Origin: Escherichia coli
GTDB taxonomy: Bacteria > Pseudomonadota > Gammaproteobacteria > Enterobacterales > Enterobacteriaceae
Strand: one strand, 5' to 3'
Assembly (NCBI RefSeq): GCF_030384885.1
Contig: NZ_CP128613.1
DNA length: 64,000 nt
Both the position numbers and the translations under genes were made by a program. The number at the start of each line of letters is the position of its first letter. Position 1 is the first letter of the stretch. Under the pieces are notes generated by a model. That model was given only the letters and a program-made list of their open reading frames with translations, was not told where the DNA came from and searched no databases. This document shows positions 15,911-40,303 of the stretch, one piece after another.

Positions 15911-15937
15911 AACACTTTTCCCGTCTATAAATATGAA

Positions 15938-18437: not shown

Positions 18438-18495
18438 CACGCTGGCAGTGAGTTAAATAAGCCTCTGCTACGTAAGGGTTATAGCATTTGCCTTA

Positions 18496-18518
18496 AAGAT
18501 GCATTTAAAATACATCTT
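18496..18518 (+). promoter_or_regulatory. NsrR operator upstream of ytfE
   Basis: Direct read aagatgcatttaaaatacatctt, an 11-1-11 perfect inverted repeat matching the NsrR box; about 27 nt before the ytfE ATG. Confidence 0.85.
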
Positions 18519-18544
18519 ATATTATTAAGAATGAGGTATCAGCT

Positions 18545-19207
18545 ATGGCTTATCGCGACCAACCTTTAGGTGAACTGGCGCTCTCTATTCCTCGCGCTTC
18601 GGCTCTGTTTCGTAAATATGATATGGATTACTGCTGCGGCGGTAAGCAAACGCTGGCGCGTGCGGCGGCACGTAAAGAACTGGATGTTGACGTCATTGAA
18701 GCCGAACTGGCAAAGCTTGCTGAACAACCGATTGAGAAAGACTGGCGTAGCGCCCCACTGGCGGAAATCATCGACCATATCATCGTGCGCTACCACGATC
18801 GTCACCGTGAACAACTGCCGGAACTGATTCTGCAAGCGACTAAAGTCGAACGCGTTCACGCCGACAAACCGAGCGTGCCAAAAGGGCTGACAAAATACCT
18901 GACTATGCTGCATGAAGAGCTTTCCAGCCACATGATGAAAGAAGAGCAGATCCTCTTCCCGATGATCAAACAAGGCATGGGTAGCCAGGCGATGGGGCCA
19001 ATTAGCGTAATGGAAAGCGAGCACGATGAAGCGGGCGAACTGCTGGAAGTGATTAAACACACCACCAATAACGTCACACCGCCGCCGGAAGCCTGCACCA
19101 CCTGGAAAGCGATGTATAACGGTATTAATGAATTGATTGATGACCTGATGGATCACATCAGCCTGGAAAACAATGTACTGTTCCCGCGCGCGCTGGCGGG
19201 TGAGTGA
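18545..19207 (+). CDS. ytfE: Iron-sulfur cluster repair di-iron protein YtfE (RIC)
   Basis: 220-aa ORF matching E. coli YtfE from memory; preceded by an NsrR box. Confidence 0.95.
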
Positions 19208-19214
19208 TCTAAAA

Positions 19215-19245
19215 GCTGGATGGCATTGCGCCATCCAGCATGATA
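19215..19245. terminator. Bidirectional intrinsic terminator between ytfE and cycA
   Basis: Hairpin gctggatggc-attgc-gccatccagc between convergent stop codons. Confidence 0.7.
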
Positions 19246-19251
19246 AAGCCG

Positions 19252-20664: not shown

Positions 20665-20972
20665 GTTTTTTTCTTCCTGTACCTGTCTGTGTTGTTCAGG
20701 CTCTGCGGCCTTTAGTCAGTCTATGATACGACGAATCTGTATCGGGACTCATCGATATTAGGTAACAATACGCGGGATGAATACTAAGATTTAGATCTAA
20801 TGTTAATTTTATGTTTAAAGTGAGTGTCATATCACGGTGATAACGCGAAACAGCTCACAAAAATACACGCTTACGTGGTCTTTGCAACACAAAATAGCGC
20901 CATTTGGCAAACTGAAGGGTTTATTGCTGAATGCCTGCTCCCCTCTGGCTCGAGGGGAACAGAATGCGCTGC

Positions 20973-21593
20973 TTAGAGGATTTCCAGCAGTTCGACTTCA
21001 AACACCAGGGTGCTGAACGGAGGGATGGACGCGCCAGCGCCACGCTCGCCATATGCCAGTTCCTGCGGGATAGTCAGTTCCCATTTAGAACCTACCGGCA
21101 TCAGAGTCAGTGCTTCAATCCAGCCAGGGATCACGCCGTTAACCGGGAATTCAGCCGGTTCGCCACGAGCAACGGAGCTGTCAAACACAGTGCCGTCGAT
21201 CAGTTTTCCGGTGTAATGAACACGAACGCGGTCGGTACGTGCCGGAATTGCGCCTTCCCCCTGGTTGATCACGCGGAATTGCAGGCCAGATTCGGTGCTA
21301 TTCACGCCCTCTTTTTTGGCGTTTTCTTCAAGATATTTCACACCTTCGGCAGCCATCGCCTGGAAACGTTGGCGACGTACGGCATCAGCGCGTTCGTGGA
21401 TTTCACGCAGCGCGCGGTGCACCACATCAACCGGAACAGCCGGATGTTTGCCTTCCAGCGCATCGGCAATGCCTGCAACCAGTGCTTCTGGCAGCAGCCC
21501 TTCCAGGCCAGATTCACTCAGTTGTTGCCCTACCTGCAAACCAATGCCGTAGCTTGCTTGCGCTTCGATGGTGTCAAAAGTTGGGGTGGTCAT
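20973..21593 (-). CDS. fklB: FKBP-type peptidyl-prolyl cis-trans isomerase FklB
   Basis: Start set at [12 protein letters not shown], 206 aa; FKBP domain in the C-terminal half. Confidence 0.93.
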
Positions 21594-21810
21594 CGTATTT
21601 CCTTTCTTAGGGTATAAAGTAGCGGGCAGCATATCAGCCACACTTCTTTGGGTAAAACTTTGTCGCGGGAATGATGACAAATCCCGGGGAAAAAGAAACA
21701 ATAGCAATATCCCGTATGAATATAATAAAGGCGGGTTTACCACGGACATCATAGCGTTAGCTTATTCATAGGCTATGATTGAGGAACAAGACGCGGAGCA
21801 GGAGGAAACC

Positions 21811-22449
21811 ATGCCCGGGCGCTTTGAACTAAAACCAACCCTGGAGAAAGTCTGGCACGCGCCGGACAATTTTCGCTTCATGGACCCGCTACCGCCGATG
21901 CATCGTCGGGGGATCATTATTGCCGCTATTGTATTGGTGGTCGGATTTCTACTCCCGTCTGATGATACGCCAAACGCGCCGGTGGTGACGCGTGAAGCAC
22001 AGTTAGATATTCAGTCGCAATCACAACCGCCGACAGAAGAACAGCTGCGGGCGCAATTAGTCACACCACAAAATGATCCTGATCAGGTGGCTCCGGTCGC
22101 TCCAGAACCGATACAGGAAGGCCAACCGGAAGAGCAGCCGCAAACCTCGCAAGTGCAACCTTTCCAGCCAGATAGCGGAATTGACAATCAATGGCGCTCT
22201 TACCGTGTCGAACCCGGTAAAACGATGGCGCAGCTGTTCCGCGACCACGGACTGCCCGCTACCGATGTCTATGCAATGGCGCAGGTAGAAGGCGCGGGTA
22301 AGCCGCTGAGTAATTTGCAAAACGGGCAGATGGTGAAAATCCGCCAGAATGCCAGCGGCGTGGTGACGGGCTTAACCATTGATACGGGGAATAATCAACA
22401 GGTCCTGTTTACCCGCCAGCCGGATGGGAGTTTTATTCGTGCGCGGTAG
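21811..22449 (+). CDS. ytfB: Cell-division protein YtfB (OapA-domain)
   Basis: Start set at [13 protein letters not shown] (212 aa); TM segment then Pro/Gln-rich linker; 3' end overlaps the convergent TetR gene. Confidence 0.88.
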
Positions 22450-23080
22450 ATGAAGGGTCAACCAAAAGCCAGCTAAGGATTGTCTCTTTGATGACCTTAC
22501 GCCTGGCTTCCAGTGCCTGCGGTGAAACCATACTGATGTGATAAACCAGGCCAAGCGTATGCTGGTTGATCAAATAATATCCTCCAAGAGCAGCAATATT
22601 AATATTCACCTGCAACGGGTCGATATCTGGCTTAAAAATATTGCGCCGTTTGCCTTCAGCTAATAATGACTCCATTAACTGTAAGTGTGCGTGGTTAATT
22701 TCTAAAAGGCGCTGTGATTTTGCATAATGCACCCCTTTACTCTGGTTTTCACTATGCACAATTTTTAAAAACCAGGGGTTAGCAATGTAATAATCCCAGG
22801 TGAAATCGATAATTTTCTCAATGGCTTTTTGTGGCGGAAGACCTGAGAAATCAAGGGATTTTTCTTTTTGCCGAATATCATTCCAGGTATATTCCAGCAC
22901 TTCGATAAATAAATTTTCTTTATTACCAAAGTGATGATAAACCGTCTGTTTACTGCACTCCGCGGCCTTGACGATATTATCGACTCTGGCCCCTTCGTAA
23001 CCATATTCGGCAAATTCATTAACCGCACATAACAACAGCTTTTCCTTCAGGCTTTGTACGTTGCTGGTATCAAGATACAT
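22433..23080 (-). CDS. TetR/AcrR-family transcriptional regulator
   Basis: N-terminal HTH ([28 protein letters not shown]) typical of TetR; ATG at 23080 preferred over the GTG at 23140 used by the ORF track; divergent from the downstream operon. Confidence 0.8.
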
Positions 23081-23202
23081 TCCGCTTCCCCACGTCTTCT
23101 TCGTGATGACTATCTTAACCCGATTTGTTAGAAGCTCCACTAAAATGGCTAAAAACTCGCAATTTCATCGGGTTATCAAATGCTCTGTGATCATTATCGC
23201 AT

Positions 23203-23224
23203 ATCAACCAACTAGATGGTTGAT
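23203..23224. promoter_or_regulatory. Candidate TetR operator (inverted repeat) in divergent promoter region
   Basis: atcaacca-actaga-tggttgat, 8-bp perfect arms, between the TetR gene and the SDR gene; inference. Confidence 0.35.
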
Positions 23225-23291
23225 CTTTCTTGCCACACATTGCAAGCTAATCGTCACTTAAGGAAATAATATTCAAAAAGAGGGTTATTGT

Positions 23292-24083
23292 ATGAAGTCA
23301 ACACGTCCTGTTGCTGTCATCACTGGAGCCGCACGTGGTATTGGAAAGGGCTGTGCACTGGAACTTGCGCGTGGCGGATTTAATCTGCTGATTAATGATC
23401 GTCCGGATGCCGACAGCGTAGAAAAATTACATGCCACACAACAAGAATGTCTGGCGGAAGGCGTGGAAGTGATTTGCTTCCCTGCTGATGTTGGCGATCT
23501 CTCCCTTCATGAAGAGATGCTCGACGCGGCGCAAAACCAGTGGGGACGTCTGGACTGTCTACTCAACAACGCAGGCATTTCAGTGAAAAAACGCGGTGAC
23601 CTCCTCGACCTCGAACCAGACAGCTTCGACCAAAACATTGCCATTAACACCCGTGCGCCGTTCTTCCTTGCTCAGGCATTCAGTAAGCGATTACTGGCAC
23701 AGCCGAAACCGGAAGCAGAACTGCCGCACCGCTCGATTATTTTTGTCAGTTCCATAAACGCCATCATGCTGGCGATGAATCGCGGCGAATATACCATTGC
23801 CAAAACTGCCGTCTCCGCCGCAGCTCGTCTGTTTGCCGCTCGCCTTTGCAATGAACAAATTGGCGTTTATGAAGTGCGCCCTGGCCTAATCAAAACCGAT
23901 ATGACCATTCCGGCAACGGCTTATTACGACGAACTGATTGCTAAGGGGTTAGTGCCGTGGGGACGTTGGGGTTATCCGGCTGATATTGCCTCAACGGTCC
24001 GCGCGATGGCGGAAGGCAAACTGATTTACACCTGTGGTCAGGCGGTCGCCATCGACGGCGGCTTAAGTATGCCGCGCTTCTGA
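23292..24083 (+). CDS. Short-chain dehydrogenase/reductase (SDR)
   Basis: TGAARGIG cofactor motif, NNAG, and Ser...Y-x3-K catalytic motif (YTIAK) read directly. Confidence 0.85.
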   Translation: MKSTRPVAVITGAARGIGKGCALELARGGFNLLINDRPDADSVEKLHATQQECLAEGVEVICFPADVGDLSLHEEMLDAAQNQWGRLDCLLNNAGISVKKRGDLLDLEPDSFDQNIAINTRAPFFLAQAFSKRLLAQPKPEAELPHRSIIFVSSINAIMLAMNRGEYTIAKTAVSAAARLFAARLCNEQIGVYEVRPGLIKTDMTIPATAYYDELIAKGLVPWGRWGYPADIASTVRAMAEGKLIYTCGQAVAIDGGLSMPRF

Positions 24084-24092
24084 GGCTGAATC

Positions 24093-24935
24093 ATGAGAGA
24101 TCTGTTACAACGCCCGGATTTATTCAGTATCAATACTGCGACACTGGGCTATAAAACGCCGCTACCTGCCATTATTGATGCCTGCGCCGCACGCGGTATT
24201 GGCGCGATTGCCCCCTGGCGCAGGGAGTTACAGGGTGAAGATCTCCAGCAAATCGCCCGCCAGCTTGCTGCCAGTAACATGAGCGTTTCCGGTTTGTGTC
24301 GTAGCACCTATTACACCGCGCCGACGCTGACGGAACGCAAACTGGCGATTGATGATAACCGCCGGGCGCTGGACGACGCCGCTGTACTGAACGCCGCCTG
24401 TTATATGCAGGTGGTTGGCGGTCTGCCAATGGGAACAAAAGATCTGTACGAAGCGCGGGAACAAGTGAAACAAGGGATTCGCCAGTTGCTGCCACATTCG
24501 AAAGATGTCGGCGTGCCAATTGCGCTGGAGCCGCTGCACCCGATGACAGCTGCCGATCGCTCTTGCCTGTGCACGTTACGTCAGGCGCTGGACTGGTGTG
24601 ATGAACTCGATCCCGATGGGGAGTTTGGCCTCGGCGTGGCGGTGGATGTTTATCACGTCTGGTGGGACCCGGATCTCGCCAGTCAGATCCTGCGTGCCGG
24701 AAAACGCATCCTCGCGTTTCATGTTTCCGACTGGCTGGTGCCAACCACCGATTTAGTCAATGACCGGGGAATGCCGGGAGATGGCGTAATCAATATTCCG
24801 TCTATTCGTCGCCAGGTAGAAAATGCCGGATTTAACGGTGCTGTGGAACTGGAAATTTTCTCACCGTACTGGTGGCAGCAAGATATTAACAGCACGTTGG
24901 ATATTAGCGTCGATCGCATCGCGCATTATTGCTAA
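24093..24935 (+). CDS. Sugar-phosphate isomerase/epimerase-like (xylose-isomerase-type TIM barrel) protein
   Basis: 280-aa ORF; family assignment by overall resemblance only (…AFHVSDW…), no database check. Confidence 0.55.
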   Translation: MRDLLQRPDLFSINTATLGYKTPLPAIIDACAARGIGAIAPWRRELQGEDLQQIARQLAASNMSVSGLCRSTYYTAPTLTERKLAIDDNRRALDDAAVLNAACYMQVVGGLPMGTKDLYEAREQVKQGIRQLLPHSKDVGVPIALEPLHPMTAADRSCLCTLRQALDWCDELDPDGEFGLGVAVDVYHVWWDPDLASQILRAGKRILAFHVSDWLVPTTDLVNDRGMPGDGVINIPSIRRQVENAGFNGAVELEIFSPYWWQQDINSTLDISVDRIAHYC

Positions 24936-24938
24936 GGA

Positions 24939-25721
24939 ATGATCATGAGTGACCAACCCGTTCTGTTCAGCAGAGCGGCGGCTTCCTGCCGCCTGACATT
25001 GAACCGTGAAGATAAATGTCATGCTATTAATGAAGAAATGATCGAATCTCTCGACCATTATTTAAATGAAATTGAAAACGACACCACATTACGATTAGTC
25101 GAATTAACGGCAACCGGCGATAAATTCTTTTGTGCAGGCGGCGATATTAAATCGTGGTCAGCCTATTCGCCATTAGATATGGGCAGAAAATGGATTAAAC
25201 GCGGCAATGACGTTTTTAATCGCCTGCGCAATTTACCTCAATTAACGGTTGCGAATCTCAACGGTCATACCATCGGCGGTGGTATTGAACTTGCCTTGTG
25301 CTGCGATATTCGTATTGCTCGCCCCGGCGCGAAATTCTCTAATCCGGAAGTAATGCTCGGCATGGTGCCTGGCTGGATGGGCATTGAACGCGTGCTTAAT
25401 CAGGTCGGTCCGGTGGTCGGTCGCCAGATGCTGATGCTGGGTAAACGCCTGACGGCGCAGGAAGCTCAGGCAGCGAATTTAATTGATGAAGTGGTAGAAA
25501 AAGAACAGGTGGAAAGCTGGATGGCGAATCAGTTAGCGCAGCTGGAAAAATGCGGTCCGGTGGCGCTCGCACATATCAAGCAACTGATTCTGGCTCTAGA
25601 AAATAAACATGCTGATTACCCGCACCAGTTACTGGCTGGATTAATGTCCGCCACTCAGGATTGCCAGCAGGCGACGCGCGCATTTGCCGAAAAAAGTAGC
25701 GTGAGCTTCCAAAATCAATAA
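24939..25721 (+). CDS. Enoyl-CoA hydratase/isomerase (crotonase family)
   Basis: Crotonase signatures FFCAGGDIKSW and GHTIGGGIELALCCDIRIA. Confidence 0.85.
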   Translation: MIMSDQPVLFSRAAASCRLTLNREDKCHAINEEMIESLDHYLNEIENDTTLRLVELTATGDKFFCAGGDIKSWSAYSPLDMGRKWIKRGNDVFNRLRNLPQLTVANLNGHTIGGGIELALCCDIRIARPGAKFSNPEVMLGMVPGWMGIERVLNQVGPVVGRQMLMLGKRLTAQEAQAANLIDEVVEKEQVESWMANQLAQLEKCGPVALAHIKQLILALENKHADYPHQLLAGLMSATQDCQQATRAFAEKSSVSFQNQ

Positions 25722-25730
25722 GGAAATTGT

Positions 25731-27272
25731 ATGCGTAAGATAACAACCGCCGAGACACTGGCGGCGCAAATTCAGGACGGTGCAACCATTGCCATTAGCG
25801 GTAATGGCGGCGGCATGGTGGAAGCGGACCATATTCTGGCTGCTATTGAAGCGCGTTTCCTGCAAACCGGACACCCGCGCGATCTGACATTAATCCACTC
25901 GCTGGGCATTGGCGATCGCGACTGCAAAGGCACTAACCGCTTCGCTCATGCAGATATGCTCAAACGCATCATTGCCGGACATTTTACCTGGTCGCCCAAG
26001 ATGCAGGATCTGGTGAAAAACAATGCTATTGAAGCCTACTGCTTCCCTGGTGGCGTAATTCAGGCACTGCTGCGGGAGATCGGTGCCGGACGTCCAGGGC
26101 TTTTTACCCACGTTGGACTGGGATCGTTTGTTGATCCGCGCAACGGCGGCGGTAAGTCGAACGCCAGCACCACTGAGGATCTGGTAGAACTGATTGAAAT
26201 CGACGGTGAAACCAAACTTCGTTATCGCCCTTTCAAAGTGGATTACGCGATTTTGCGTGGCACTTATGCCGATCCTCGAGGCAACGTCAGCCTTGAAGAA
26301 GAGGCGATTGATATGGATAGCTATTCCATGGCGCTGGCAGCACACAACAGCGGTGGCAAAGTGTTCGTACAGGTGCGCGATGTGCTGGAAGCTGGTGCCA
26401 TTGAACCACGCCGGGTCAAATTACCGGGCATTCTGGTTGATGGCATCGTTGAACACCGCGAACAACCGCAAACATATCTTGGCGGTTACGACCTGACCAT
26501 CAGCGGTCAGCACCGCCGTTTAAGTTCTAACGACGCTATTGAACTGGTTACTCATCCGGTGCGCCGCCTGATTGCCCGTCGGGCAGCACGCGAACTGGTG
26601 GCTGGCGCTTCAACCAACTTTGGCTTTGGCATTCCCGGCGGCATTCCTGGGGTTGCACTGCGCGAAGGCGTGCCTTATCAAAGTTTATGGCTGAGCGTCG
26701 AGCAAGGCGTGCATAACGGTATGATGCTGGATGATGCTCTGTTCGGCTGCGCCCGTAACGCCGATGCCATTATTCCATCACTCGATCAATTCGAATTCTA
26801 CAGTGGCGGAGGGATCGATATCACCTTCCTCGGCATGGGAGAGATGGATCAGCATGGTAACGTCAACGTCTCCCATCTCAATGGCAATCTCATTGGCCCC
26901 GGCGGATTTCTCGAAATTGCGCAAAACGCCCGTAAAGTGGTGTTCTGTGGCACGTTCGACGCCAAAGGTAGCAAGATTGATGTAACACCAGATGGCTTGC
27001 ATATCGCCCAGTCAGGTCAAATCCCTAAACTGGTTACCCAAGTGGAAAAAATCACTTTTAGCGCCGCCTACGCACAGCAAAGCGGTCAGGAAGTGTTGTA
27101 TATCACTGAACGTGCAGTATTCCAATTAACAGCAGAAGGCGTTGAATTAATTGAAATCGCACCAGGTGTGGAGATTGAGCGCGACATTCTGCCATATATG
27201 GCTTTCCGTCCAATTATCAATCAGCCACGCCTGATGGAAAGTAGCCTGTTTACGCCGATGGAGGATGCATGA
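25731..27272 (+). CDS. Family-I CoA-transferase (YdiF/acetate CoA-transferase-like, fused A/B subunits)
   Basis: 513-aa ORF; long stretches resemble E. coli YdiF as I recall it (…VGLGSFVDPRNGGGK…); 3' end overlaps the next gene (ATGA). Confidence 0.8.
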   Translation: MRKITTAETLAAQIQDGATIAISGNGGGMVEADHILAAIEARFLQTGHPRDLTLIHSLGIGDRDCKGTNRFAHADMLKRIIAGHFTWSPKMQDLVKNNAIEAYCFPGGVIQALLREIGAGRPGLFTHVGLGSFVDPRNGGGKSNASTTEDLVELIEIDGETKLRYRPFKVDYAILRGTYADPRGNVSLEEEAIDMDSYSMALAAHNSGGKVFVQVRDVLEAGAIEPRRVKLPGILVDGIVEHREQPQTYLGGYDLTISGQHRRLSSNDAIELVTHPVRRLIARRAARELVAGASTNFGFGIPGGIPGVALREGVPYQSLWLSVEQGVHNGMMLDDALFGCARNADAIIPSLDQFEFYSGGGIDITFLGMGEMDQHGNVNVSHLNGNLIGPGGFLEIAQNARKVVFCGTFDAKGSKIDVTPDGLHIAQSGQIPKLVTQVEKITFSAAYAQQSGQEVLYITERAVFQLTAEGVELIEIAPGVEIERDILPYMAFRPIINQPRLMESSLFTPMEDA

Positions 27273-29350
27273 GTCAGCTTGATGACACCCTCCTTGATGC
27301 GCTGACGCATGTCACTTTCCCGAAGGGTTTTGCACAGGCAGAACCCGCATGGGTTGTCACGGTAGACGGTGTTGATTACCCACTCTGGCAAACAGATGCC
27401 CTGGTAGTCGGCAGTGGTGCAGCCGGGCTGCGTGCAGCTGTGGAACTTAAACGCCGCCAGCAAAATGTGTTGATCGCCACTGCCGGGTTATATATGGGGA
27501 CGTCGGCATGTTCTGGTTCCGATAAACAGACACTGTTTACCGCCGCTACCGCGGGCAATGGCGACAACTTCACCAAACTGGCAGAGGCACTGGCGAGCGG
27601 TGGAGCGATGGATCACGACACCGCTTATGTCGAAGCGGTAGGTTCTCTGCACACTCTTGGCGGGTTGCAATATCTTGGTCTGGAATTACCGGAAGATCGC
27701 TATGGCGCGATTCTTCGTTATCAAACCGACCATGACGAAGCCGGGCGTGCAACCTCGTGTGGGCCGCGTACCTCAAGGTTAATGGTGAAAGTGCTGTTGG
27801 AAGAAGTGCAGCGCCTCGCCATTCCAGTGTTGACCAGTGCAACAGTGATTAAACTGCTGCATCAGCGTGACGAAAACGGCGAAGACTGCGTGGCGGGGGC
27901 AATCCTCGCGACCGGTCATCGCGCCCATAACCCATGGGGGCTGGCAATTGTGACTGCGCCCAATGTGGTGCTGGCAACAGGAGGGCCTGGCGAGCTTTAT
28001 CGAGACAGTGTGTACCCACATAAATGCTTCGGCTCGCTGGGGCTGGCGCTGGAAGAAGGTCTGACGCTAACCAATCTGACCGAAAGCCAGTTTGGTATTG
28101 GCACGCCACGCAACACCTTTCCGTGGAATTTGTCCGGCACCTATGTACAGGTGATCCCATATATCTATTCCGTAGATGCTGAGGGCAACGAGTATAACTT
28201 CCTCACGGATTACTATCGAACTACCCAGGAACTGGCTTCAAACATCTTCCGTAAAGGCTATCAGTGGCCGTTTCACGCCACACGAGTGATGGATTTTGGC
28301 TCCAGCTTGTTAGATATGGCAGTAGCGCAAGAGCAGCAATCAGGGCGTCAGGTATTTATGGATTTCAATCGCAATCCTGAACCTGTGCCGGGTGACATGC
28401 CGTTCTCATTAGATCGACTGGACGACGACGTTCGCGCGTATCTGGAAAATAACGACGCTCTGGCACCATCGCCCATCGAACGACTGCAACGAATGAATCC
28501 GCTGTCTATCTCGCTGTATAAGATGCACGGTTACGATCTCACCACGCAGCCATTGCAGTTTGCCATGAATAATCAGCATATGAATGGCGGCATTGAAGTG
28601 GATATCTGGGGGCAAACCTCCCTGCCCGGCTGTTTCGCCGTGGGGGAAGTTGCTGGCACACACGGCGTTACCCGACCTGGCGGTGCGGCGCTGAATGCCG
28701 GACAGGTATTTGCCGTGCGACTGGCACGTTTTATTGGTTGCACACAAAAGCGGTCCGTTGAGGATGATATCGCGCAGCTGGTAGCCTCACCTCTGCATAC
28801 AATCAGAGAAGTTATCGCTCAGGCACTGGCAAACGAGAACGGAATGACGCTGGCAACGGTGAAAGAAAAAATCCAGGCGCGAATGTCTGATTACGCGGGA
28901 TTTATTTGCCATGCTGATAAAGTTCGTCACGCCGCCCGTGACGCCATGCTGTTAAATGAATTTGCGCAGCAACATGGTCTAACTATCAACCACGCCGGTG
29001 AAATTGCCGAGCTATTTATGTGGCGGCATATGGCATTAACATCCGCTGCGGTGTTAAGCCAGCTATCACATTATATTGATGCTGGCGGTGGTAGTCGTGG
29101 AGCACGGATGATTATTGATCCACAAGGAGAATATCTTCCACAAACTCGTCGCGGCGCAATCGAAGATTGGCGTTTTCGCTCTGAACAAGCTGAAGATAAA
29201 AATCACAGACTAACTCTCTCCTTTTCACAAGGTTTATTTATTAATGAAATTAAGTTCTTGAGAAACTTACCGCATATTAAAGGTATTTACTTTGAGAAGA
29301 ATTGGCCTGATTTTCTTAACGGAACAATTTATCAGACACGGCATGAATAA
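27269..29350 (+). CDS. FAD-dependent oxidoreductase (fumarate reductase/succinate dehydrogenase/L-aspartate oxidase-like flavoprotein)
   Basis: Dinucleotide-binding motif VVGSGAAGLRAA, HMNGG and GEVAGTHGVTRPGGAALN motifs of the FAD_binding_2 family; 693 aa with an AT-rich C-terminal tail. Confidence 0.75.
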   Translation: MSQLDDTLLDALTHVTFPKGFAQAEPAWVVTVDGVDYPLWQTDALVVGSGAAGLRAAVELKRRQQNVLIATAGLYMGTSACSGSDKQTLFTAATAGNGDNFTKLAEALASGGAMDHDTAYVEAVGSLHTLGGLQYLGLELPEDRYGAILRYQTDHDEAGRATSCGPRTSRLMVKVLLEEVQRLAIPVLTSATVIKLLHQRDENGEDCVAGAILATGHRAHNPWGLAIVTAPNVVLATGGPGELYRDSVYPHKCFGSLGLALEEGLTLTNLTESQFGIGTPRNTFPWNLSGTYVQVIPYIYSVDAEGNEYNFLTDYYRTTQELASNIFRKGYQWPFHATRVMDFGSSLLDMAVAQEQQSGRQVFMDFNRNPEPVPGDMPFSLDRLDDDVRAYLENNDALAPSPIERLQRMNPLSISLYKMHGYDLTTQPLQFAMNNQHMNGGIEVDIWGQTSLPGCFAVGEVAGTHGVTRPGGAALNAGQVFAVRLARFIGCTQKRSVEDDIAQLVASPLHTIREVIAQALANENGMTLATVKEKIQARMSDYAGFICHADKVRHAARDAMLLNEFAQQHGLTINHAGEIAELFMWRHMALTSAAVLSQLSHYIDAGGGSRGARMIIDPQGEYLPQTRRGAIEDWRFRSEQAEDKNHRLTLSFSQGLFINEIKFLRNLPHIKGIYFEKNWPDFLNGTIYQTRHE

Positions 29351-29370
29351 TATTGCAAAGGTTAATCACT

Positions 29371-29847
29371 ATGCGAAATATAATCAGATCTATTAATTCA
29401 TTGCTTTCCACGTTGAACATTACCATTTTGGCAATTATTGTGATGTGCGTTACATGGCAAGTAGTAGCACGATTTATCTTTAAAAGCCCCAGCATTTTTA
29501 CAGATGAACTTAGTCGTTTACTATTTATTTGTCTTGGACTTTTTGGTGGTGCTTATACTGCCGGACAAAACCGACATCTGGCCATTGATCTTCTGCCAAT
29601 GATGCTAAAAGGAAAATCCCGACGTTATTTATTCTTATGTATTCAGGCCATTGTTATTCTTTTTGCCTCTATCATTATGGTTTATGGTGGCGGGTTATTA
29701 ACACTGGACACATTTGATTCAGGGCAAACTTCTCCGGCTTTAGGCTGGCAGATGGGATATATTTACATGAGCATTCCAATAAGTGGCATCCTTATTATTA
29801 TATACACCATAGATACAGTTTTAACCGAACTTAAACAACCACTCTAA
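29371..29847 (+). CDS. TRAP transporter small permease (DctQ-like)
   Basis: About 158 aa with 4 predicted TM helices; ATG at 29371 with upstream aaagg preferred over the TTG at 29353; directly upstream of DctM. Confidence 0.75.
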   Translation: MRNIIRSINSLLSTLNITILAIIVMCVTWQVVARFIFKSPSIFTDELSRLLFICLGLFGGAYTAGQNRHLAIDLLPMMLKGKSRRYLFLCIQAIVILFASIIMVYGGGLLTLDTFDSGQTSPALGWQMGYIYMSIPISGILIIIYTIDTVLTELKQPL

Positions 29848-29869
29848 AATAAGTAGGGATGGAGAAAAC

Positions 29870-31171
29870 ATGGATTACTGGTTACCGATCATTGTGTTAT
29901 TTGGTTCTTTCTTTTTTATGTTGGCATTAGGTGTTCCTATTGTCTATGCTATTGGTTTATCAACACTGGCATCAATTACTACACAACTCGATTTCAACTC
30001 AGCATTGAGTGTGGTTTCACAAAAGTTAGCCTCCGGGTTAGATAGTTTTACGTTGTTGGCAATCCCATTTTTTATCTTGTCTGGCAACATTATGAATCAT
30101 GGAGGAATAGCGCGACGATTAATCAACTTTGCCCGTATTCTCGGCGGTCGTCTGCCAGGCTCACTTGCTCACTGTAATATTCTTGCCAATATGCTGTTCG
30201 GGGCAATTTCTGGTTCAGCTGTTGCTTCGGCGGCTGCGATGGGCGGCGTCATGCATCCACAGCAGGTTAAAGAGGGTTACGACCCGGCATTCAGTACCGC
30301 TGTTAACGTTGCCTCTGCACCGACAGGTTTACTTATTCCACCCAGTAATACGTTAATTGTCTTTTCACTGGTCAGTGGTGGTACTTCTATTGCCGCACTG
30401 TTCCTGGCAGGATATGTCCCGGGAATTTTATTGGGCCTGGCGCTGATGACTGTGGCTGGTATTATCGCGGTACGCCGGGGTTATCCAAAACCAGAACGTC
30501 CGACTTTGCGCCAGGCTGGAGTGGCAATATGGATGGCGATCCCCAGTATTTTCCTGATTGTATTAATTATGGGTGGTGTACTAAGCGGTATTTTTACCCC
30601 GACAGAAGCATCTGCAATTGCGGTAATTTATACCCTTTTCCTTGCACTGGTTCTTTATCGTGAAATATCAGTTAAAGATTTACCTAAGATATTTCTGGAG
30701 TCCGTCATTACCACTGCAATTGTCTTGTTGTTAATTGGTTCTTCAATGGGAATGTCATGGGCAATGTCAAACGCTGACGTTCCCTTCCTGATTCTCGATT
30801 TGCTTAACACTATTTCTGATAATCCAATAATAATCCTGCTTATTATCAATATTATTCTGTTGATTATCGGCACATTTATGGATATGACACCGGCAGTACT
30901 GATTTTTACGCCGATATTTTTACCCGTTGTCACCGAACTGGGCATGGACCCGATTCACTTTGGTATTGTCATGGTACTGAACATGTGTATCGGTATTTGT
31001 ACTCCGCCTGTAGGCAGTGTGTTATTTGTCGGTTGTAGTGTATCTAAATTACCGATTAATAAAATTATCAAACCTATGCTGCCCTTCTATGCCGTGATGG
31101 TATTGGTGCTGGCTATGGTGACCTATATTCCGCAAATCAGTATGGCATTGCCAAGAGCACTGGGCTACTGA
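29870..31171 (+). CDS. TRAP transporter large permease (DctM-like)
   Basis: 433-aa polytopic membrane protein; size and hydrophobicity pattern typical of DctM. Confidence 0.85.
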   Translation: MDYWLPIIVLFGSFFFMLALGVPIVYAIGLSTLASITTQLDFNSALSVVSQKLASGLDSFTLLAIPFFILSGNIMNHGGIARRLINFARILGGRLPGSLAHCNILANMLFGAISGSAVASAAAMGGVMHPQQVKEGYDPAFSTAVNVASAPTGLLIPPSNTLIVFSLVSGGTSIAALFLAGYVPGILLGLALMTVAGIIAVRRGYPKPERPTLRQAGVAIWMAIPSIFLIVLIMGGVLSGIFTPTEASAIAVIYTLFLALVLYREISVKDLPKIFLESVITTAIVLLLIGSSMGMSWAMSNADVPFLILDLLNTISDNPIIILLIINIILLIIGTFMDMTPAVLIFTPIFLPVVTELGMDPIHFGIVMVLNMCIGICTPPVGSVLFVGCSVSKLPINKIIKPMLPFYAVMVLVLAMVTYIPQISMALPRALGY

Positions 31172-31223
31172 TGCGCATTCACTGGCGGCTCCTGCCGCCA
31201 TATTTATTAGAAAAGGAACATCT

Positions 31224-32195
31224 ATGAAAATAAAAGTATCCGCTGGCATTATCGGTGCTGTTCTTATGTTATCTGCAGGCCAGTCCTGGGCAGTAACATT
31301 AAAACTTAGCCATAATCAGGATAAATCTCATCCTGTTCATAAAGCGATGGAGTTCTTTGCGAAAAAGAGCAAAGAGTACTCTAACGGTGATATTACTATT
31401 CGTATTTATCCAAATGGAACATTGGGTACTCAACGAGAAACAATGGAGCTGATTCGTTCTGGTGCTATTCCGCTGGTAAAAACCAATGCGGCGGAGATGG
31501 AAGCCTTCGAGAGTTCGTATAAAATATTTAGCCTGCCTTATTTGTTCCGCGATCGTGATCATTATTATCAGGTCATGCAAGGCGATATCGGAAGGAAAAT
31601 CCTCGACTCAACGAAAAACAAAGGTTATTTCGGTCTGACTTTCTATGATGGAGGCGCCCGCAGCTTCTACGGCAATAAACCGGTGCTGAAACCAGACGAT
31701 CTCAAAGGAATGAAAGTTCGTGTCCAGCCAAGCCCAGGGGCAGTTGAGATGATCAAAGTCATGGGAGGTAACCCAACACCGCTGGATTATGGAGAGTTGT
31801 ACACAGCATTGCAGCAAGGTGTGGTTGATATGGCGGAAAACAGTGTGATGGCGCTGACCACCATGCGCCACGGTGAAGTAGCAAAATCCTTCAGCCTTGA
31901 CGAACACACTATGGTTCCTGATGTGGTTCTAATGAGCAATGCTTCGTTTGATAAGCTTAGCCCGGAAAATCAGGCAGCTATATTAAAAGCAGCTAAAGAA
32001 TCAATGAGCTACATGAAAGACTTGTGGAGCGAGGAAGAGAAAAAAGAATTCGCTAAACTGGATCAAATGGGCGTGAAAGTCTACAAGGTTGATAAAGCAC
32101 CGTTTATCGAGAAAGTGCAGCCGATGTACGCAGCCTTTGCTAAGGAAAACCCTGCTCTCGCCCCAATGCTAACTGATATTCAGGCGACTAAGTAA
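31224..32195 (+). CDS. TRAP transporter substrate-binding protein (DctP-like), periplasmic
   Basis: 323 aa, signal peptide MKIKVSAGIIGAVLMLSAGQSWA; DctP-size soluble protein adjacent to DctQM. Confidence 0.8.
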   Translation: MKIKVSAGIIGAVLMLSAGQSWAVTLKLSHNQDKSHPVHKAMEFFAKKSKEYSNGDITIRIYPNGTLGTQRETMELIRSGAIPLVKTNAAEMEAFESSYKIFSLPYLFRDRDHYYQVMQGDIGRKILDSTKNKGYFGLTFYDGGARSFYGNKPVLKPDDLKGMKVRVQPSPGAVEMIKVMGGNPTPLDYGELYTALQQGVVDMAENSVMALTTMRHGEVAKSFSLDEHTMVPDVVLMSNASFDKLSPENQAAILKAAKESMSYMKDLWSEEEKKEFAKLDQMGVKVYKVDKAPFIEKVQPMYAAFAKENPALAPMLTDIQATK

Positions 32196-32252
32196 TTATC
32201 TTAATAGGGCTGCTTATTGTGGCCCTTAGCAATATCTACAAGCGCTCGCTAT

Positions 32253-32288
32253 AAAAGCAAAACGCCGACCAATGGTCGGCGTTTTTAC
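32253..32288. terminator. Bidirectional intrinsic terminator between TRAP operon and rplI
   Basis: aaaagcaaa-acgccgacc-aatg-gtcggcgt-ttttacg: hairpin flanked by A-run and T-run. Confidence 0.75.
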
Positions 32289-32306
32289 GTCTCGTTGAAT
32301 AACGAA

Positions 32307-32768
<462 letters not shown>

Positions 32769-32797
32769 TCAAAGTCGTATTAATGGACCGTGACCGA

Positions 32798-33344
<547 letters not shown>

Positions 33345-33350
33345 CAGAAA

Positions 33351-33764
<414 letters not shown>

Positions 33765-34073
33765 TTATTCAGCCTCCTGTCTGGGTCAGCCGAATCCCGG
33801 GGAGGCAAGGAACGTGTTAAAGGTCGGCTGAAAAATGACGCGTTATAGTACTGACATACCCCGCTAAACTCAAGGCCAGCCGACAAATAAATCTCATCTT
33901 TCACCAAATCGTACTAACACGCTGATTTGAAGTTCATCACACTTCATCATGGTGTTTTTTTGAACAACTGCATCAGAAATGGTCACCATCCACTTCTTTA
34001 TCATTGATTAAAATTAAATCAGAAGATCACCACAAGAGGAGAGCACACAAAGTCAGCCGTCGAGGAGGTATCT

Positions 34074-34349
34074 ATGTTCAGCCGTGTTTTAGCCCTTCTG
34101 GCTGTGCTTTTGCTAAGTGCAAATACATGGGCAGCCATTGAAATTAATAACCACCAGGCCAGAAATATGGACGATGTGCAAAGCTTAGGCGTGATTTATA
34201 TCAATCATAATTTCGCCACTGAAAGTGAAGCACGTCAGGCATTAAATGAAGAGACAGATGCGCAGGGCGCAACGTACTACCATGTGATTCTGATGCGGGA
34301 ACCGGGGAGTAACGGCAATATGCACGCCAGCGCGGATATTTATCGCTAG
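34074..34349 (+). CDS. yjfY: DUF1471 (YhcN/BhsA family) periplasmic protein YjfY
   Basis: 91 aa, signal peptide, C-terminal ...ADIYR motif shared with bsmA and yjfN. Confidence 0.88.
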   Translation: MFSRVLALLAVLLLSANTWAAIEINNHQARNMDDVQSLGVIYINHNFATESEARQALNEETDAQGATYYHVILMREPGSNGNMHASADIYR

Positions 34350-34388
34350 CACCAGGTATAACCAACGAAACATTGCCATAGTTTGCTT

Positions 34389-34415
34389 TGCCCCCTTTTC
34401 AGGGGGCTTTTTTTG
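34389..34415 (+). terminator. Intrinsic terminator after yjfY
   Basis: gcccccttttcagggggc hairpin followed by ttttttt. Confidence 0.85.
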
Positions 34416-34477
34416 AAAAACGGCTGCGGACTTAGACCAGTTATCTCCCGAAGAAGGAAATCTCCGCAGCGCGTGTT

Positions 34478-35164
34478 TTACTTCTGCCCGTAATAGGCGT
34501 TGGGACCGTGCTTACGCATGAAGTGTTTATTCATGAGATAGCTGTCGATGTGATTCAGTTGCGGGTTAATGCCGCGGGCAATCCACGCCATTTTCGCCAC
34601 TTCTTCCATCACCACCGCGTTATGCACCGCATCGTGAGCATCTTTCCCCCAGGCGAATGGCCCGTGCTGATACACCACAATTCCCGGCGTATGCAGCGGC
34701 TCGGCGTCACCCAGCGTTTCGATAATCACTTTGCCAGTGTTTAGCTCGTATTCCCCCTGCACTTCTTCTTCGCTTAACCCGCGCGTACACGGGATATCGC
34801 CAAAGAAGTAGTCAGCGTGCGTGGTGCCTAATGCCGGGATCGCCAGCCCCGCCTGCGCCCATGCGGTGGCATGCGTGGAATGGGTATGGACAATGCCGCC
34901 AAGCGACGGATAACGACGGTAGAGTTCAAGATGCGTCGCAGTGTCGGAAGACGGACGATACTCCCCTTCCACCACCTTGCCACTCATATCAACCACCACC
35001 ATATCGTTCGCTTTCATGCTTTCGTAGGCAATGCCGCTGGGCTTGATCACCACCAGCCCGCGTTCGCGGTCAATGGCGCTGACGTTACCCCAGGTAAAGG
35101 TCACCAGCCCGTAGCGCGGCAGATCCATATTGGCTTCAAATACCTGCTGTTTTAGCTTTTGCAT
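34478..35164 (-). CDS. ulaF: L-ribulose-5-phosphate 4-epimerase UlaF
   Basis: 228-aa class II aldolase/epimerase fold; last gene of ulaABCDEF. Confidence 0.95.
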
Positions 35165-36018
35165 TATGCCGCCTCCACCATGCCGGCTTTAGCCATGCGC
35201 GCTTTCACCCAATCACGCGCTTTCGCCACTTCTGCCGCCGGGTCTTCCGCCGTTTCGCTCCACATCTCAATCAGGTACGGCCCGCAATAACCACTCTGTT
35301 TGAGCGTTTCGAAGCAACGTTCGAAATCCACTACACCTTCGCCAAACGGCACGTTTTTGAAGACGCCTGGTTTAGTGTCTTTCACATGCACCGCAACGAT
35401 GTGCCCGATTCCGGCCTGCAACTCCATCTGCACGTCGTTGTCCCACGCCGACAAGTTGCCGATATCCGGGTAGAGCTGGAACCACGGGTTGTTAAGATAG
35501 TGCGCGTAACCCAGCGCCTTGCTGATGGAGTTCATCAACGGGTAATCCATGATCTCCATTGCCAGCGTCACCTGCGCGCGGCTCGCCATCTCAACGCTCT
35601 CTTTCAGGCCGTCACGGAAACGACGACGCGTTTCGTTATTGGCTTCCTGATAGTAAACGTCGTAGCCCGCCAGTTGGATCACGCGAATACCGACATCCTG
35701 GGCGAACTGGATAGCTTTGCGCATAATCTCCAGCCCCTGCGCCCGCACTGCGTCATCTTCGCTGCCCAGCGGGAAACGGCGATGAGCAGAAAGGCACATG
35801 GACGGCACGCGCACGCCGGTTTCAACAATCGCGTTCACCAGCGCCAGACGCTGCTCGCGGCTCCAGTCAAGGCGCGAGAGGCGATCGTCCGTTTCATCTA
35901 CCGACATCTCGACAAAATCGAAGCCTAACGTTTTTGCCAGTTGCAGCCGTTCCAGCCAGCACTCCCCGGTGGGGAGCGCTTTTTCGTAGATGCCAAGCGG
36001 GATTTGTTTGGACAACAT
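35164..36018 (-). CDS. ulaE: L-ribulose-5-phosphate 3-epimerase UlaE
   Basis: 284-aa TIM-barrel; synteny in ula operon. Confidence 0.95.
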
Positions 36019-36027
36019 ATCCGCTCC

Positions 36028-36678
36028 TTAGCCCCACAGCTCGGCGATGGAACGTTTGAACTGACGCGCGGCTTCAACCGGAGAAGCGGCATCACGGATA
36101 CTACGCCCCGCGATAAACACATGAATCGGAATGCCTTTGAACAGCGGCAGGTCTTCCAGCGCCAGGCCACCGGTGACGGTGACTTTGAAGCCCATATCGG
36201 AAAGACGTTTGATCGCGGTGATATCCGCTTCGCCCCACGCCACGCCTGCGGCCTGCGCGTCACGGCTGCGGTGATAAACCACCTGCTGGATACCTGCGTC
36301 GCGCCACTGCTGCGCCTGTTCCCAGGTCCAGTAACCGGTCAGTTCGATCTGCACGTCGCCATTAAACTCTTTTGCCACGTCCAGCGCGCCTTTGGCGGTG
36401 TTGATATCTGCACAACAAATCACGGTCACCCAGTCAGCGTTGGCTTCAAAGCACATACGAGAAAGGATTTTGCCCGCATCGGCGATTTTGGCGTCTGCCA
36501 GCACGATTTTGTGCGGATAAAGCGCTTTCAGATCGCGAACCGCACGCACACCTTCGCCCACGCACAGAATGGTGCCCACTTCGATAATGTCGACTTCTTC
36601 GGCAATCAGGCGAGTAGTTTCGTAGGCGCTAGCCATAGTCTGGTTGTCCAGCGCGACTTGCAACATCGGTAATGACAT
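36028..36678 (-). CDS. ulaD: 3-keto-L-gulonate-6-phosphate decarboxylase UlaD
   Basis: Start set at [11 protein letters not shown] (216 aa); the ORF-track 267-aa version over-extends into ulaC. Confidence 0.95.
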
Positions 36679-36691
36679 TTTCAATTCCTTC

Positions 36692-37156
36692 TTAAGCAGC
36701 CGCGTTGGTGCGGTCAATGAGATCCAGGACTTCCTGCTCAGTACGGCAGGCGCGTAAACGGTCGAAATTCTCTTCATCTTCAAACAGGTTGACGATCTGC
36801 ATGATGCCCACTTCCTGATGCGTGTTGGCATCGACCGCCGCCATCGTGATGAGGATATCCACCGGGTCGTTATCTTCGTGGTTGAACTCCAGCGGCTTTT
36901 TCAGCGTCACCAGTGCAAAACCGGTTTTCTTAACGCCCTCTTCCGGGCGACCATGCGGCATTGCCAGGCCCGGTGCGAGCACAAAGTACGGGCCGTGTTG
37001 TTCAACCGCATCCAGAATCGCCTGGTAGTAACGCGGCTCTACCACATCTGCCGCCACCAGCAGGTCAACGCCGATTTTCACTGCGTCCTGCCATGTCTCA
37101 ACTTCAGCCTGCAGACGGATAGATTTATTCTCCGCCAGCGAATCACGTAATTTCAT
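36692..37156 (-). CDS. ulaC: Ascorbate-specific PTS EIIA component UlaC
   Basis: 154-aa ORF; synteny. Confidence 0.95.
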
Positions 37157-37165
37157 AGCGCGCCC

Positions 37166-37471
37166 TTACTTCACGTCCTGCGGGAAATGTTCTTTGATCA
37201 CTTCCAGCAGTTTCGGGCCAAAATCGGCAGGAGAGAGCATGTTGCGCACGCCAACCACGTATTTATTGCCGGTCACGGTTATTTCGCCCGCGATGTGCGT
37301 AGAAGCGATGATGATATCCGCGCCGCTCAACTCGCTTTTGTATTCACCAACCGCGCAGCTGTTTACCGTGTGGTCGATGTTCGACTGGGTTAAAAACTGG
37401 TCCACTTTCATTTTCATGATCATGGAACTGCCTTGTCCGTTACCACACACAGCCAGAATACGTACGGTCAT
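37166..37471 (-). CDS. ulaB: Ascorbate-specific PTS EIIB component UlaB
   Basis: Start set at [16 protein letters not shown] (101 aa), with the Cys phosphorylation site. Confidence 0.95.
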
Positions 37472-37486
37472 AATCAAAACTCCTTA

Positions 37487-39238
<1,752 letters not shown>

Positions 39239-40303
39239 ATGAGTAAAGTGAAAAGTATCACCCGTGAATCCTGGATCCTGAGCACTTTCCCGGAGTGGGG
39301 TAGCTGGTTGAATGAAGAAATTGAACAAGAACAGGTAGCTCCTGGCACATTCGCGATGTGGTGGCTAGGCTGCACCGGGATCTGGCTGAAATCTGAAGGA
39401 GGCACCAACGTTTGCGTCGATTTCTGGTGTGGTACTGGCAAACAAAGTCACGGTAACCCACTAATGAAACAGGGTCACCAGATGCAGCGCATGGCTGGCG
39501 TGAAAAAACTGCAACCGAACCTGCGTACCACCCCATTTGTTCTTGATCCGTTTGCGATTCGCCAGATCGACGCGGTACTGGCAACTCACGATCACAACGA
39601 TCATATCGACGTCAACGTCGCTGCTGCCGTGATGCAGAACTGCGCTGATGACGTGCCATTTATCGGGCCGAAAACCTGCGTGGATTTGTGGATTGGCTGG
39701 GGTGTGCCGAAAGAACGTTGCATCGTGGTCAAACCGGGCGATGTCGTTAAAGTGAAAGACATTGAAATTCATGCCCTTGACGCGTTTGACCGTACTGCAC
39801 TGATCACTTTGCCTGCCGATCAAAAAGCGGCTGGCGTACTGCCAGACGGCATGGACGATCGCGCGGTAAACTACCTGTTCAAAACGCCGGGCGGTACCCT
39901 GTATCACAGTGGCGATTCCCACTACTCTAACTACTATGCGAAGCACGGTAACGAGCATCAGATCGACGTGGCATTAGGTTCATACGGTGAAAACCCACGT
40001 GGTATCACCGACAAAATGACCAGTGCTGATATCCTGCGTATGGCAGAAGCGCTGAATACAAAAGTGGTTATCCCGTTCCACCACGACATCTGGTCAAACT
40101 TCCAGGCCGATCCGCAAGAGATCCGCGTACTGTGGGAGATGAAAAAAGATCGCCTGAAGTATGGCTTCAAGCCGTTTATCTGGCAGGTCGGTGGCAAATT
40201 TACCTGGCCGCTGGATAAAGACAATTTCGAGTACCACTATCCACGTGGTTTTGACGATTGCTTCACCATTGAACCGGATCTGCCGTTCAAGTCGTTCCTG
40301 TAA
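39239..40303 (+). CDS. ulaG: L-ascorbate-6-phosphate lactonase UlaG (metallo-beta-lactamase fold)
   Basis: 354 aa from [12 protein letters not shown]; HDHNDH metal-binding motif. Confidence 0.95.

Follow-up and report, generated by a model that had tools for sequence, protein, structure and literature searches.

The question raised by this locus is what a second transporter of the TRAP (tripartite ATP-independent periplasmic) type does in Escherichia coli. The window analysed here is a stretch of 64,000 nucleotides of contig NZ_CP128613.1 (assembly GCF_030384885.1), and the system in question, dctQMP, consists of three genes, for a small membrane subunit, a large membrane subunit and a periplasmic substrate-binding protein (SBP). 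An earlier note, made from the sequence alone, had taken it for an additional, uncharacterised TRAP system unrelated to YiaMNO of strain K-12. It is indeed separate from YiaMNO, and a literature search found no publication on the TRAP system or its operon; one survey merely lists ytfA, the K-12 counterpart of the operon's regulator gene, among variable TetR genes. What has to be refined is its setting: rather than standing alone, dctQMP closes, at the 3' end, an operon-like unit of nine genes that lies between ytfB and rplI, and it is a common system in E. coli that already carries a generic RefSeq annotation. As read from the sequence, it would most probably take up a hexuronate-like hydroxy-carboxylate with high affinity and so supply an undescribed pathway dependent on coenzyme A (CoA).

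An intact TRAP transporter at the end of a nine-gene unit

DctP-type TRAP transporters (TC 2.A.56) are built from a DctQ-family subunit with four transmembrane segments, a DctM-family subunit with twelve, and a secreted SBP of family 7. All of these are present, together with the conserved arginine of the SBP that is discussed below. The consecutive DctQ-, DctM- and DctP-like genes described at 29371-32195 are RefSeq coding sequences (CDSs) at the same coordinates, with full-length Pfam matches (Table 1), and the TRAP signatures are strong on profile search: DctM scores 460 bits with TIGR00786 (cut-off 268), and DctP scores 252 bits with NF037995 (cut-off 50) and is likewise above the cut-off of TIGR00787. 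In a crude hydropathy scan, DctQ and DctM come out as multi-pass membrane proteins and DctP shows no segment of this kind. The N-terminus of DctP reads MKIKVSAGIIGAVLMLSAGQSWA followed by VTL. It is typical of a Sec signal peptide, has an A-x-A-like site for cleavage and ends in SWA before the V, in agreement with the signal peptide noticed earlier. There is a plausible Shine-Dalgarno sequence before each of the three genes; for dctQ an alternative start at an upstream TTG (29353) is possible, the RefSeq start being 29371. The fold of DctP is certain from its sequence, and SBP-dependent uptake driven by an ion gradient is predicted for DctQMP from its family membership.

YiaMNO, the 2,3-diketo-L-gulonate TRAP transporter of E. 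coli K-12, has the transporter class and the three-gene Q-M-P order in common with dctQMP, and differs from it in locus, regulator, neighbouring enzymes and equivalog scores. BLASTP identities to the K-12 proteins are far from near-identity (28% to YiaO, 36% to YiaN and 28% to YiaM), and the NCBIfam equivalog cut-offs for YiaM (NF007374, 39 bits against 260) and YiaN (NF011634, 292 bits against 800) are missed. The K-12 yiaMNO genes lie at 3.744 Mb, in plaR-yiaK...lyxK (the yiaK-lyxK-sgbHUE cluster), rather than at ytfB-rplI.

Within the nine-gene unit, a divergent TetR-type regulator comes first and dctQMP are the last three cistrons. Between them are five enzyme genes, encoding a short-chain dehydrogenase/reductase (SDR), a TIM-barrel protein, an enoyl-CoA hydratase/isomerase (crotonase), a CoA-transferase and a flavoprotein. 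From the SDR gene to dctP the gaps are, in order, 9, 9, 9, -4, 20, 22 and 52 bp, the 20 bp being those from the flavoprotein stop to dctQ. A sequence scan gave no convincing internal promoter or terminator upstream of dctM within the operon; the promoter scan found 14 sites, against 14.9 in shuffled sequence, and therefore no internal promoter is claimed.

The three TRAP genes had been described as visibly more AT-rich than the upstream enzyme genes, and the composition check bears this out for each of them. For dctQ, dctM and dctP respectively, GC content is 0.37, 0.44 and 0.45, and GC at third codon positions (GC3) is 0.31, 0.41 and 0.45, against a GC of 0.49-0.55 and a GC3 of 0.49-0.58 in the five enzyme genes. 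This is not just an amino-acid effect of membrane proteins, since the synonymous sites are AT-rich too, whereas the native genes cycA, ulaA and ulaE, of which cycA and ulaA also encode membrane proteins, have a GC3 of 0.65-0.70. Klebsiella huaxiensis and a typical E. coli allele show the same step from enzyme to TRAP genes. There is no GC3 step in a high-GC version of the operon (locus L007, in our own numbering of loci other than the window), where GC3 is uniformly about 0.8 across the whole cluster.

The genes are under purifying selection. The ratio of non-synonymous to synonymous substitution (dN/dS), measured against the typical E. coli allele, is 0.05 for dctQ, 0.03 for dctM and 0.05 for dctP. 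Against K. huaxiensis it is 0.01-0.03 for dctM and dctP, with synonymous divergence (dS) saturated, and for dctQ dS is too saturated for an estimate.

Distribution in E. coli and exchange of the transporter

Distribution was determined in 5426 complete E. coli genomes. The five enzyme genes are found in 3152 of them (58%) and this TRAP system in 1480 (27%), of which 1445 keep at least 80% of the region. A transporter of the major facilitator superfamily (MFS) occupies the same slot in 1693 genomes. The two transporter counts add up to 3173 and the enzymes occur in 3152 genomes, a near match which shows that the operon almost always ends in either the TRAP or the MFS transporter. The slot of the MFS gene is exactly that between the flavoprotein gene and rplI, and the MFS version is also found in E. 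whittamii and Entomohabitans. The MFS protein belongs to the anion:cation symporter (ACS) family, in the group that includes galactonate, hexuronate and glucarate carriers, and scores 314 bits with TIGR00893, the D-galactonate transporter subfamily. The TRAP and MFS transporters are thus two interchangeable uptake modules of one five-enzyme operon.

The site of the exchange can be seen in the sequence. Along the flavoprotein gene the haplotypes with TRAP and with MFS share 93-100% identity, until they part about 280 bp short of the stop codon. In the window, identity to the common TRAP allele falls from 93-99% elsewhere to 61-85% in the segment 28750-29750, which holds the 3' end of the flavoprotein gene and dctQ; dS against the typical E. 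coli allele is about 1.0 for dctQ and 0.2-0.4 for its neighbours. Taken together, these observations mark a recombination junction, and it looks like that of the transporter swap.

In K-12 the same site holds yjfZ and the ytfA pseudogene, with yjfZ in place of the eight downstream genes; yjfZ is found in 2539 of the genomes. Homology between K-12 and the window extends across ytfB and the 3'-terminal 400 bp or so of the regulator gene (ytfA, L004, 3695-4096) and there ends abruptly. As the end of homology lies within the regulator, ytfA is the stump of the operon's TetR regulator, and the absence of the system from K-12, is a loss. What remains in strain LR-24 (L101, 7673-9350) after an IS1-bounded deletion is a fragment of the regulator and the final 350 bp of dctP; this strain lost the unit independently of K-12. 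In another E. coli strain, IS1 is inserted in dctP.

The window itself is 100% identical to NZ_CP027579.1, the sequence of E. coli strain 2013C-4282. The core genes that flank the unit (ytfF, cycA and ula; flanks 17500-22400 and 32300-40000) are only about 95% identical to those of typical E. coli, and its cycA is matched at 99% identity or more in just 2 of 5415 genomes. The strain belongs to a divergent lineage and may be a cryptic-clade Escherichia filed as E. coli.

The low GC3 relative to the host, the hypervariable flavoprotein 3' end and dctQ, the IS1 insertions and deletions of some strains and the disappearance of the whole unit from K-12 would all fit a recently acquired cassette that is decaying and has no current function. 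Such a cassette is hard to reconcile with the intact open reading frames, the full-length coverage of the protein family models, the low dN/dS against both E. coli (0.03-0.05) and Klebsiella, and the retention of the region in nearly all genomes that have the TRAP system, and decay is the least probable of the explanations considered here.

Relatives of the binding protein and its probable substrate

Relatives of DctP were sought among 5.8 billion proteins, and the matches fall into two tiers. In the first, with 76-95% identity, the same five enzymes accompany DctP in all five contexts examined. The unit lies at ytfB-rplI in typical E. coli, in K. huaxiensis and on the enterobacterial contigs L098 and L099, and among entirely different neighbours in L007 (63.5% GC). 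The TRAP proteins of L007 are 70-85% identical to those of the window and its enzymes 40-62%. As the transporter is better conserved than the enzymes, the sequences suggest horizontal movement of the TRAP cassette between versions of the operon, and such movement favours a dedicated link in function between cassette and operon. The L007 cluster (10001-20972) has the same operon with an added MaoC dehydratase, and its dctP is divergent from dctQM, as in glucuronate clusters. An extra gene for an EamA/DMT-family transporter lies between dctP and rplI in K. huaxiensis (L005, 11030-11956), L098 (10463-11383) and L099 (11015-11950), and is absent from Escherichia.

The second tier consists of SBPs of Vibrio, Providencia, Aeromonas and Gallibacterium that are 53-61% identical to DctP. 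All four contexts examined are glucuronate clusters, with UxaC and a GntR regulator and variously UxuB of the mannitol-dehydrogenase type, UxuA, KdgK/KdgA and glycoside hydrolases (GH2/GH31). These TRAP systems are the closest non-orthologous relatives, with identities of 68% for DctM, about 60% for DctP and 50% for DctQ. Their hosts have lower GC, which is compatible with the AT-rich cassette in the window. They sit with uxa, uxu, kdg and GH genes, whereas none of the five enzymes of the window unit is found there.

Comparison with solved structures points the same way. The top 14 PDB matches of DctP have E-values of 4e-71 to 5e-52 and belong to the EFI TRAP set, after which the values drop to 1e-43; SiaP follows at about 1e-36, and the C4-dicarboxylate DctPs at 1e-28 to 1e-33, some 100-130 bits under the hexuronate set. 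Apart from the five entries cited next, the ligands of the top 14 are presumably hexuronates too. DctP is 39% identical both to 4X8R and to 4N8Y, which are glucuronate and galacturonate complexes (PMC11668362). In addition, 4N91 and 4MHF bind glucuronate, and 4N15 was the modelling template for the glucuronate-binding STM3169 (PMC7660916). Placed among the characterised TRAP binding proteins by sequence comparison, DctP is therefore nearest to proven hexuronate binders.

The "Dct" names used in Pfam and NCBIfam, and a neighbouring flavoprotein from the superfamily of succinate dehydrogenase and fumarate reductase, could be taken to indicate a C4-dicarboxylate (succinate, fumarate or malate) DctPQM system. 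The PDB match scores just given show that these proteins are not the closest relatives of DctP, and the flavoprotein has Gly276 where NadB has His244, so that C4-dicarboxylate transport is very improbable. The earlier name DctQMP was right as to family, but because the nearest relatives are hexuronate binders it should not be read as a statement about the substrate.

The residues of the binding site agree with this ancestry in part. STM3169 contacts glucuronate through Asn35, Gln36, Glu74, Arg150, Arg170, Asn210 and Asp237 (PMC7660916). By positional offset, the counterparts in the window DctP are N31, Q32, R146, R166, N206 and D233, all of them conserved or invariant in an 18-sequence alignment, together with Gln70 in place of the Glu of the solved proteins. 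R166, in the motif MKVRVQPS, is invariant in the same alignment and lies in register with the Arg that all five solved relatives conserve; this Arg (Arg147 in SiaP, Arg170 in STM3169) pairs with the carboxylate of the ligand (PMC7660916). The Glu-to-Gln change at position 70 was considered as a specificity switch and ruled out: Gln70 is invariant in the glucuronate-cluster relatives as well, and is thus not diagnostic.

Twenty-seven alignment columns separate the operon-linked DctP group from the glucuronate-cluster group. By Asn206, the group-specific changes are G/A203 to M, N207 to S, position 208 to V, T/P209 to M and S/A214 to M, to which Y140 to F is added; the solved uronate binders, too, have N207, Y140 and a small residue at 203. 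DctP would thus appear to retain a scaffold for recognising a carboxylate and a ring, with a less polar sub-site, and such a pocket would fit a less hydroxylated hexuronate analogue or a similarly shaped carbocyclic acid.

A simpler proposal is that dctQMP is a self-sufficient second importer of D-glucuronate or D-galacturonate, of high affinity, resembling STM3169-STM3171 of Salmonella Typhimurium and feeding the universal UxaC/UxuAB pathway, and that the adjoining enzymes are there by accident. The glucuronate-cluster ancestry, the hexuronate ligands of the best PDB matches and the conservation of the named contact residues would all follow from it, and STM3169 has no catabolic neighbours either (PMC7660916). 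The DctP-type architecture is indeed common to the window system, STM3169-STM3171 and the EFI SBPs 4X8R, 4N8Y, 4N15, 4N91, 4MHF and 4OVR; the carboxylate-binding Arg and the Arg, Asn, Asn-Gln and Asp contacts are kept in the window DctP, but its residues beside the ligand Asn, and F140, differ. In that group, however, dctP is divergent from dctQM, while the window genes are co-linear in the order Q-M-P, and the window has no uxa or uxu context but a CoA-transferase/hydratase/flavoprotein operon instead. The proposal is weakened by the operon linkage, by the alternation with the MFS transporter and by the substitutions that would lie next to the pocket: the same enzymes are kept in 5 of 5 orthologue contexts, including the non-syntenic L007 with its better conserved TRAP proteins; the junction to the flavoprotein gene is 20 bp; the exchange with the MFS gene takes place in exactly the same operon slot; and the changes around Asn206 are specific to the operon-linked group. 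We regard a self-sufficient glucuronate importer as unlikely. It is probable, instead, that dctQMP is a functional TRAP importer dedicated to its operon, with a hexuronate-like substrate.

The adjoining enzymes and a possible pathway

The features of the unit are collected in Table 1.

Table 1. Features of the nine-gene unit and its surroundings (window positions), and the MFS gene that takes the place of dctQMP at other loci.
Feature	Position	Strand	Evidence or remark
TetR/AcrR-family regulator, intact form of K-12 ytfA	22433-23080	-	RefSeq CDS; divergent from operon
Inverted repeat ATCAACCA-N6-TGGTTGAT (8-N6-8)	23203-23224	.	Hairpin scan and reading; regulator/operon spacer, ~70 bp upstream of SDR start codon
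SDR oxidoreductase, PRK12745 family	23292-24083	+	Pfam adh_short_C2 4.5e-42; NF009386 421 bits vs 250
Xylose-isomerase-like TIM-barrel protein ("sugar phosphate isomerase/epimerase")	24093-24935	+	Pfam AP_endonuc_2 2.4e-37
Enoyl-CoA hydratase/isomerase (crotonase)	24945-25721	+	Pfam ECH_1 5e-45
Fused family-I CoA-transferase, YdiF-like	25731-27272	+	Pfam CoA_trans; PDB 2AHU (E. coli YdiF) E 6e-116
FAD_binding_2 flavoprotein, 693 aa, NadB/FrdA/SdhA superfamily, altered active site	27269-29350	+	Pfam FAD_binding_2
dctQ, TRAP small membrane subunit	29371-29847	+	RefSeq CDS; Pfam DctQ (PF04290) E 3.2e-31, profile 1-131/132
dctM, TRAP large membrane subunit	29870-31171	+	RefSeq CDS; Pfam DctM (PF06808) E 3.6e-119, profile 1-413/413
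GC-rich stem-loop TGGCGGC-TCCT-GCCGCCA, then T-rich tract	31183-31200	+	Terminator-like; between dctM and dctP
dctP, periplasmic SBP with signal peptide	31224-32195	+	RefSeq CDS; Pfam DctP (PF03480) E 2.6e-83, profile 2-285/286
Symmetric hairpin AAAACGCCGACC-AAT-GGTCGGCGTTTT	32259-32285	.	12-pair stem, 7 GC pairs, A-run and T-run flanks; between convergent dctP and rplI
MFS gene in the same slot	L093 11143-12420; L094 11143-12420; L010 12166-13443; L014 12190-13470		

Orthologues of the regulator carry the Pfam domains TetR_N and TetR_C_29, and the regulator weakly resembles, over its full length and at 44 bits, the acyl-CoA-sensing TetR-type FadR of Bacillus and Thermus (PDB 5gpa, 3whb). The palindrome in the spacer upstream of the SDR gene is a candidate TetR operator. 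The stem-loop between dctM and dctP could act as a partial attenuator, stabilise the dctP mRNA or set the ratio of SBP to membrane subunits, and the hairpin beyond dctP is likely to be a bidirectional terminator. An Rfam scan of 22300-32450 found neither a riboswitch nor any other RNA family.

Among the enzymes, the TIM-barrel protein has 3QC0, 3JU2 (SMc04130) and 7VPF as its nearest solved structures (E 1e-85 to 2e-60); their PDB molecule names are non-specific, and a literature search turned up no function for them. The crotonase keeps both catalytic-Glu motifs of its family, read from the sequence as GGGIELAL and SNPEVMLG. A tblastn comparison of CoA-transferase orthologues with K-12 YdiF gave an identity of about 38%.

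The flavoprotein aligns with NadB, FrdA and SdhA at an hhalign probability of 99.9%. It retains the His-Arg pair H437 and R469, the counterparts of NadB His351 and Arg386, but with Gly276 at the position of NadB His244 one of the two dicarboxylate-binding His residues has gone. At the site of the catalytic Arg motif there is a 20-residue insertion with invariant R328, K329, H336 and R339. An identity as a KstD-like ring desaturase was considered and rejected, the sequence grouping the protein with NadB, FrdA and SdhA.

A scan of 100,044 species genomes for relatives of the flavoprotein found 323 loci, of which 80 were kept. The relatives in these 80 are 53-92% identical, those outside Enterobacterales 53-59%, and the latter occur in Rhizobiales, Rhodobacterales, Betaproteobacteria, Planctomycetota, Lentisphaerota, Verrucomicrobiota and others; no characterised member of the family could be found. 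The commonest neighbours in the 80 loci are Gfo/Idh/MocA oxidoreductases (34 loci), SDRs (25), two GMC oxidoreductases (24 and 20), LacI regulators (23), TIM-barrel proteins (21) and an ABC ATPase with a MalK-type domain (20, with ABC permease and SBP components in fewer loci), followed by CoA-transferases (17), crotonases (16), TetR regulators (15), aldehyde dehydrogenases (11) and KdgK-like kinases (10). These counts tie the family to oxidation modules for sugars, cyclitols and sugar acids, with CoA-thioester chemistry in a subset. A betaproteobacterial version (L026, 1-12109) combines a CoA-transferase, crotonase, distant TRAP transporter, MaoC, acyl-CoA dehydrogenase, electron-transferring flavoprotein (ETF) beta and alpha subunits, TIM-barrel protein and flavoprotein; this combination reinforces the case for CoA-thioester redox chemistry in the pathway.

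We therefore picture the system as follows, extrapolating from protein families. DctP would capture an organic acid in the periplasm by means of its conserved arginine and hand it to the DctQ-DctM membrane unit, where the ion gradient would drive import. The transporter would supply substrate to the SDR, TIM-barrel enzyme, enoyl-CoA hydratase, YdiF-like CoA-transferase and NadB/FrdA-like flavoprotein, the whole unit being under the predicted control of the divergent TetR regulator, intact YtfA. That the substrate is an organic anion is suggested by the fact that both alternative transporters are anion carriers, and that it is hexuronate-like by the ancestry of the binding protein. Most likely it is a ring-forming, hexuronate-like hydroxy-carboxylate, either glucuronate or galacturonate themselves or, with greater probability, an analogue that has fewer hydroxyls or a carbocyclic acid that resembles them in shape. 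The TRAP cassette would have been recruited from the glucuronate-TRAP lineage of lower-GC Gammaproteobacteria, and the alternate anion-type MFS transporter should carry the same compound at lower affinity. Inside the cell, beta-oxidation-like or reductive steps would come after activation with CoA. The CoA-transferase may serve for activation, the flavoprotein for desaturation or reduction, the crotonase for hydration or dehydration, the SDR for oxidation or reduction, and the TIM-barrel enzyme for isomerisation or dehydration.

There are several points against a dedicated hexuronate-like importer. The enzyme set of the operon fits no known hexuronate pathway, and a TetR regulator with CoA chemistry would suit an acid more hydrophobic than a sugar acid. 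At M203, S207, V208, M209, M214 and F140, DctP departs from every uronate-linked relative, so that its ligand may be something other than a hexuronate. Finally, the association with hexuronate catabolic genes (uxaC, uxuA, uxuB, kdgK) seen in the second tier fails for DctP: homologues of UxaC, UxuA and UxuB are absent from the window unit and from all 84 related loci, and homologues of YdiB and AroD are found in 0 of the 84.

We propose tentatively, and with rather less assurance than for the dedicated importer, that the TRAP or MFS transporter is the entry to an undescribed pathway in which a hexuronate-shaped hydroxy-carboxylate is activated with CoA and then handled by the crotonase, SDR, TIM-barrel enzyme and flavoprotein. 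Deoxy uronates, unsaturated uronates and cyclitol carboxylates (quinate or shikimate, for example) are speculative candidate ligands. On the counts for the 84 related loci, a link to the isomerase pathway of uronate catabolism was rejected, as was a specific link to quinate or shikimate metabolism; the latter compounds are kept merely as a speculative ligand class. If the proposal is true, a pathway present in 58% of E. coli was missed because K-12 had deleted the operon.

It is worth adding that the nearest parallels in operon logic, as distinct from the transporter, are the cai/fix carnitine operon and the K-12 ydiF-ydiO-ydiQRST cluster. These clusters and the window unit combine a transporter, CoA-transferase, crotonase and flavin oxidoreductase that act, by prediction in the window unit, on the CoA ester of a hydroxy acid. 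The redox enzyme is an acyl-CoA dehydrogenase in the known clusters and a NadB/FrdA-like protein in the window unit, which adds an SDR and a sugar-type TIM-barrel enzyme.

The transporter is a new, uncharacterised orthologue group in a well-known family, and the orphan operon, with its flavoprotein family and its natural exchange of TRAP and MFS modules, is the more interesting object. The view of E. coli as a species with a single TRAP transporter has been shaped by K-12: about a quarter of complete genomes carry a second one, and nearly 60% carry its operon. The alternation of TRAP and MFS transporters on one operon offers a ready-made comparison of high- and low-affinity uptake of the same substrate. 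If the ligand were identified, a widespread, strain-variable trait of gut E. coli would be linked to a nutrient or an electron acceptor, the ancestor of the ytfA pseudogene would gain a function, and there would be a first handle on a flavoprotein family that spans several phyla.

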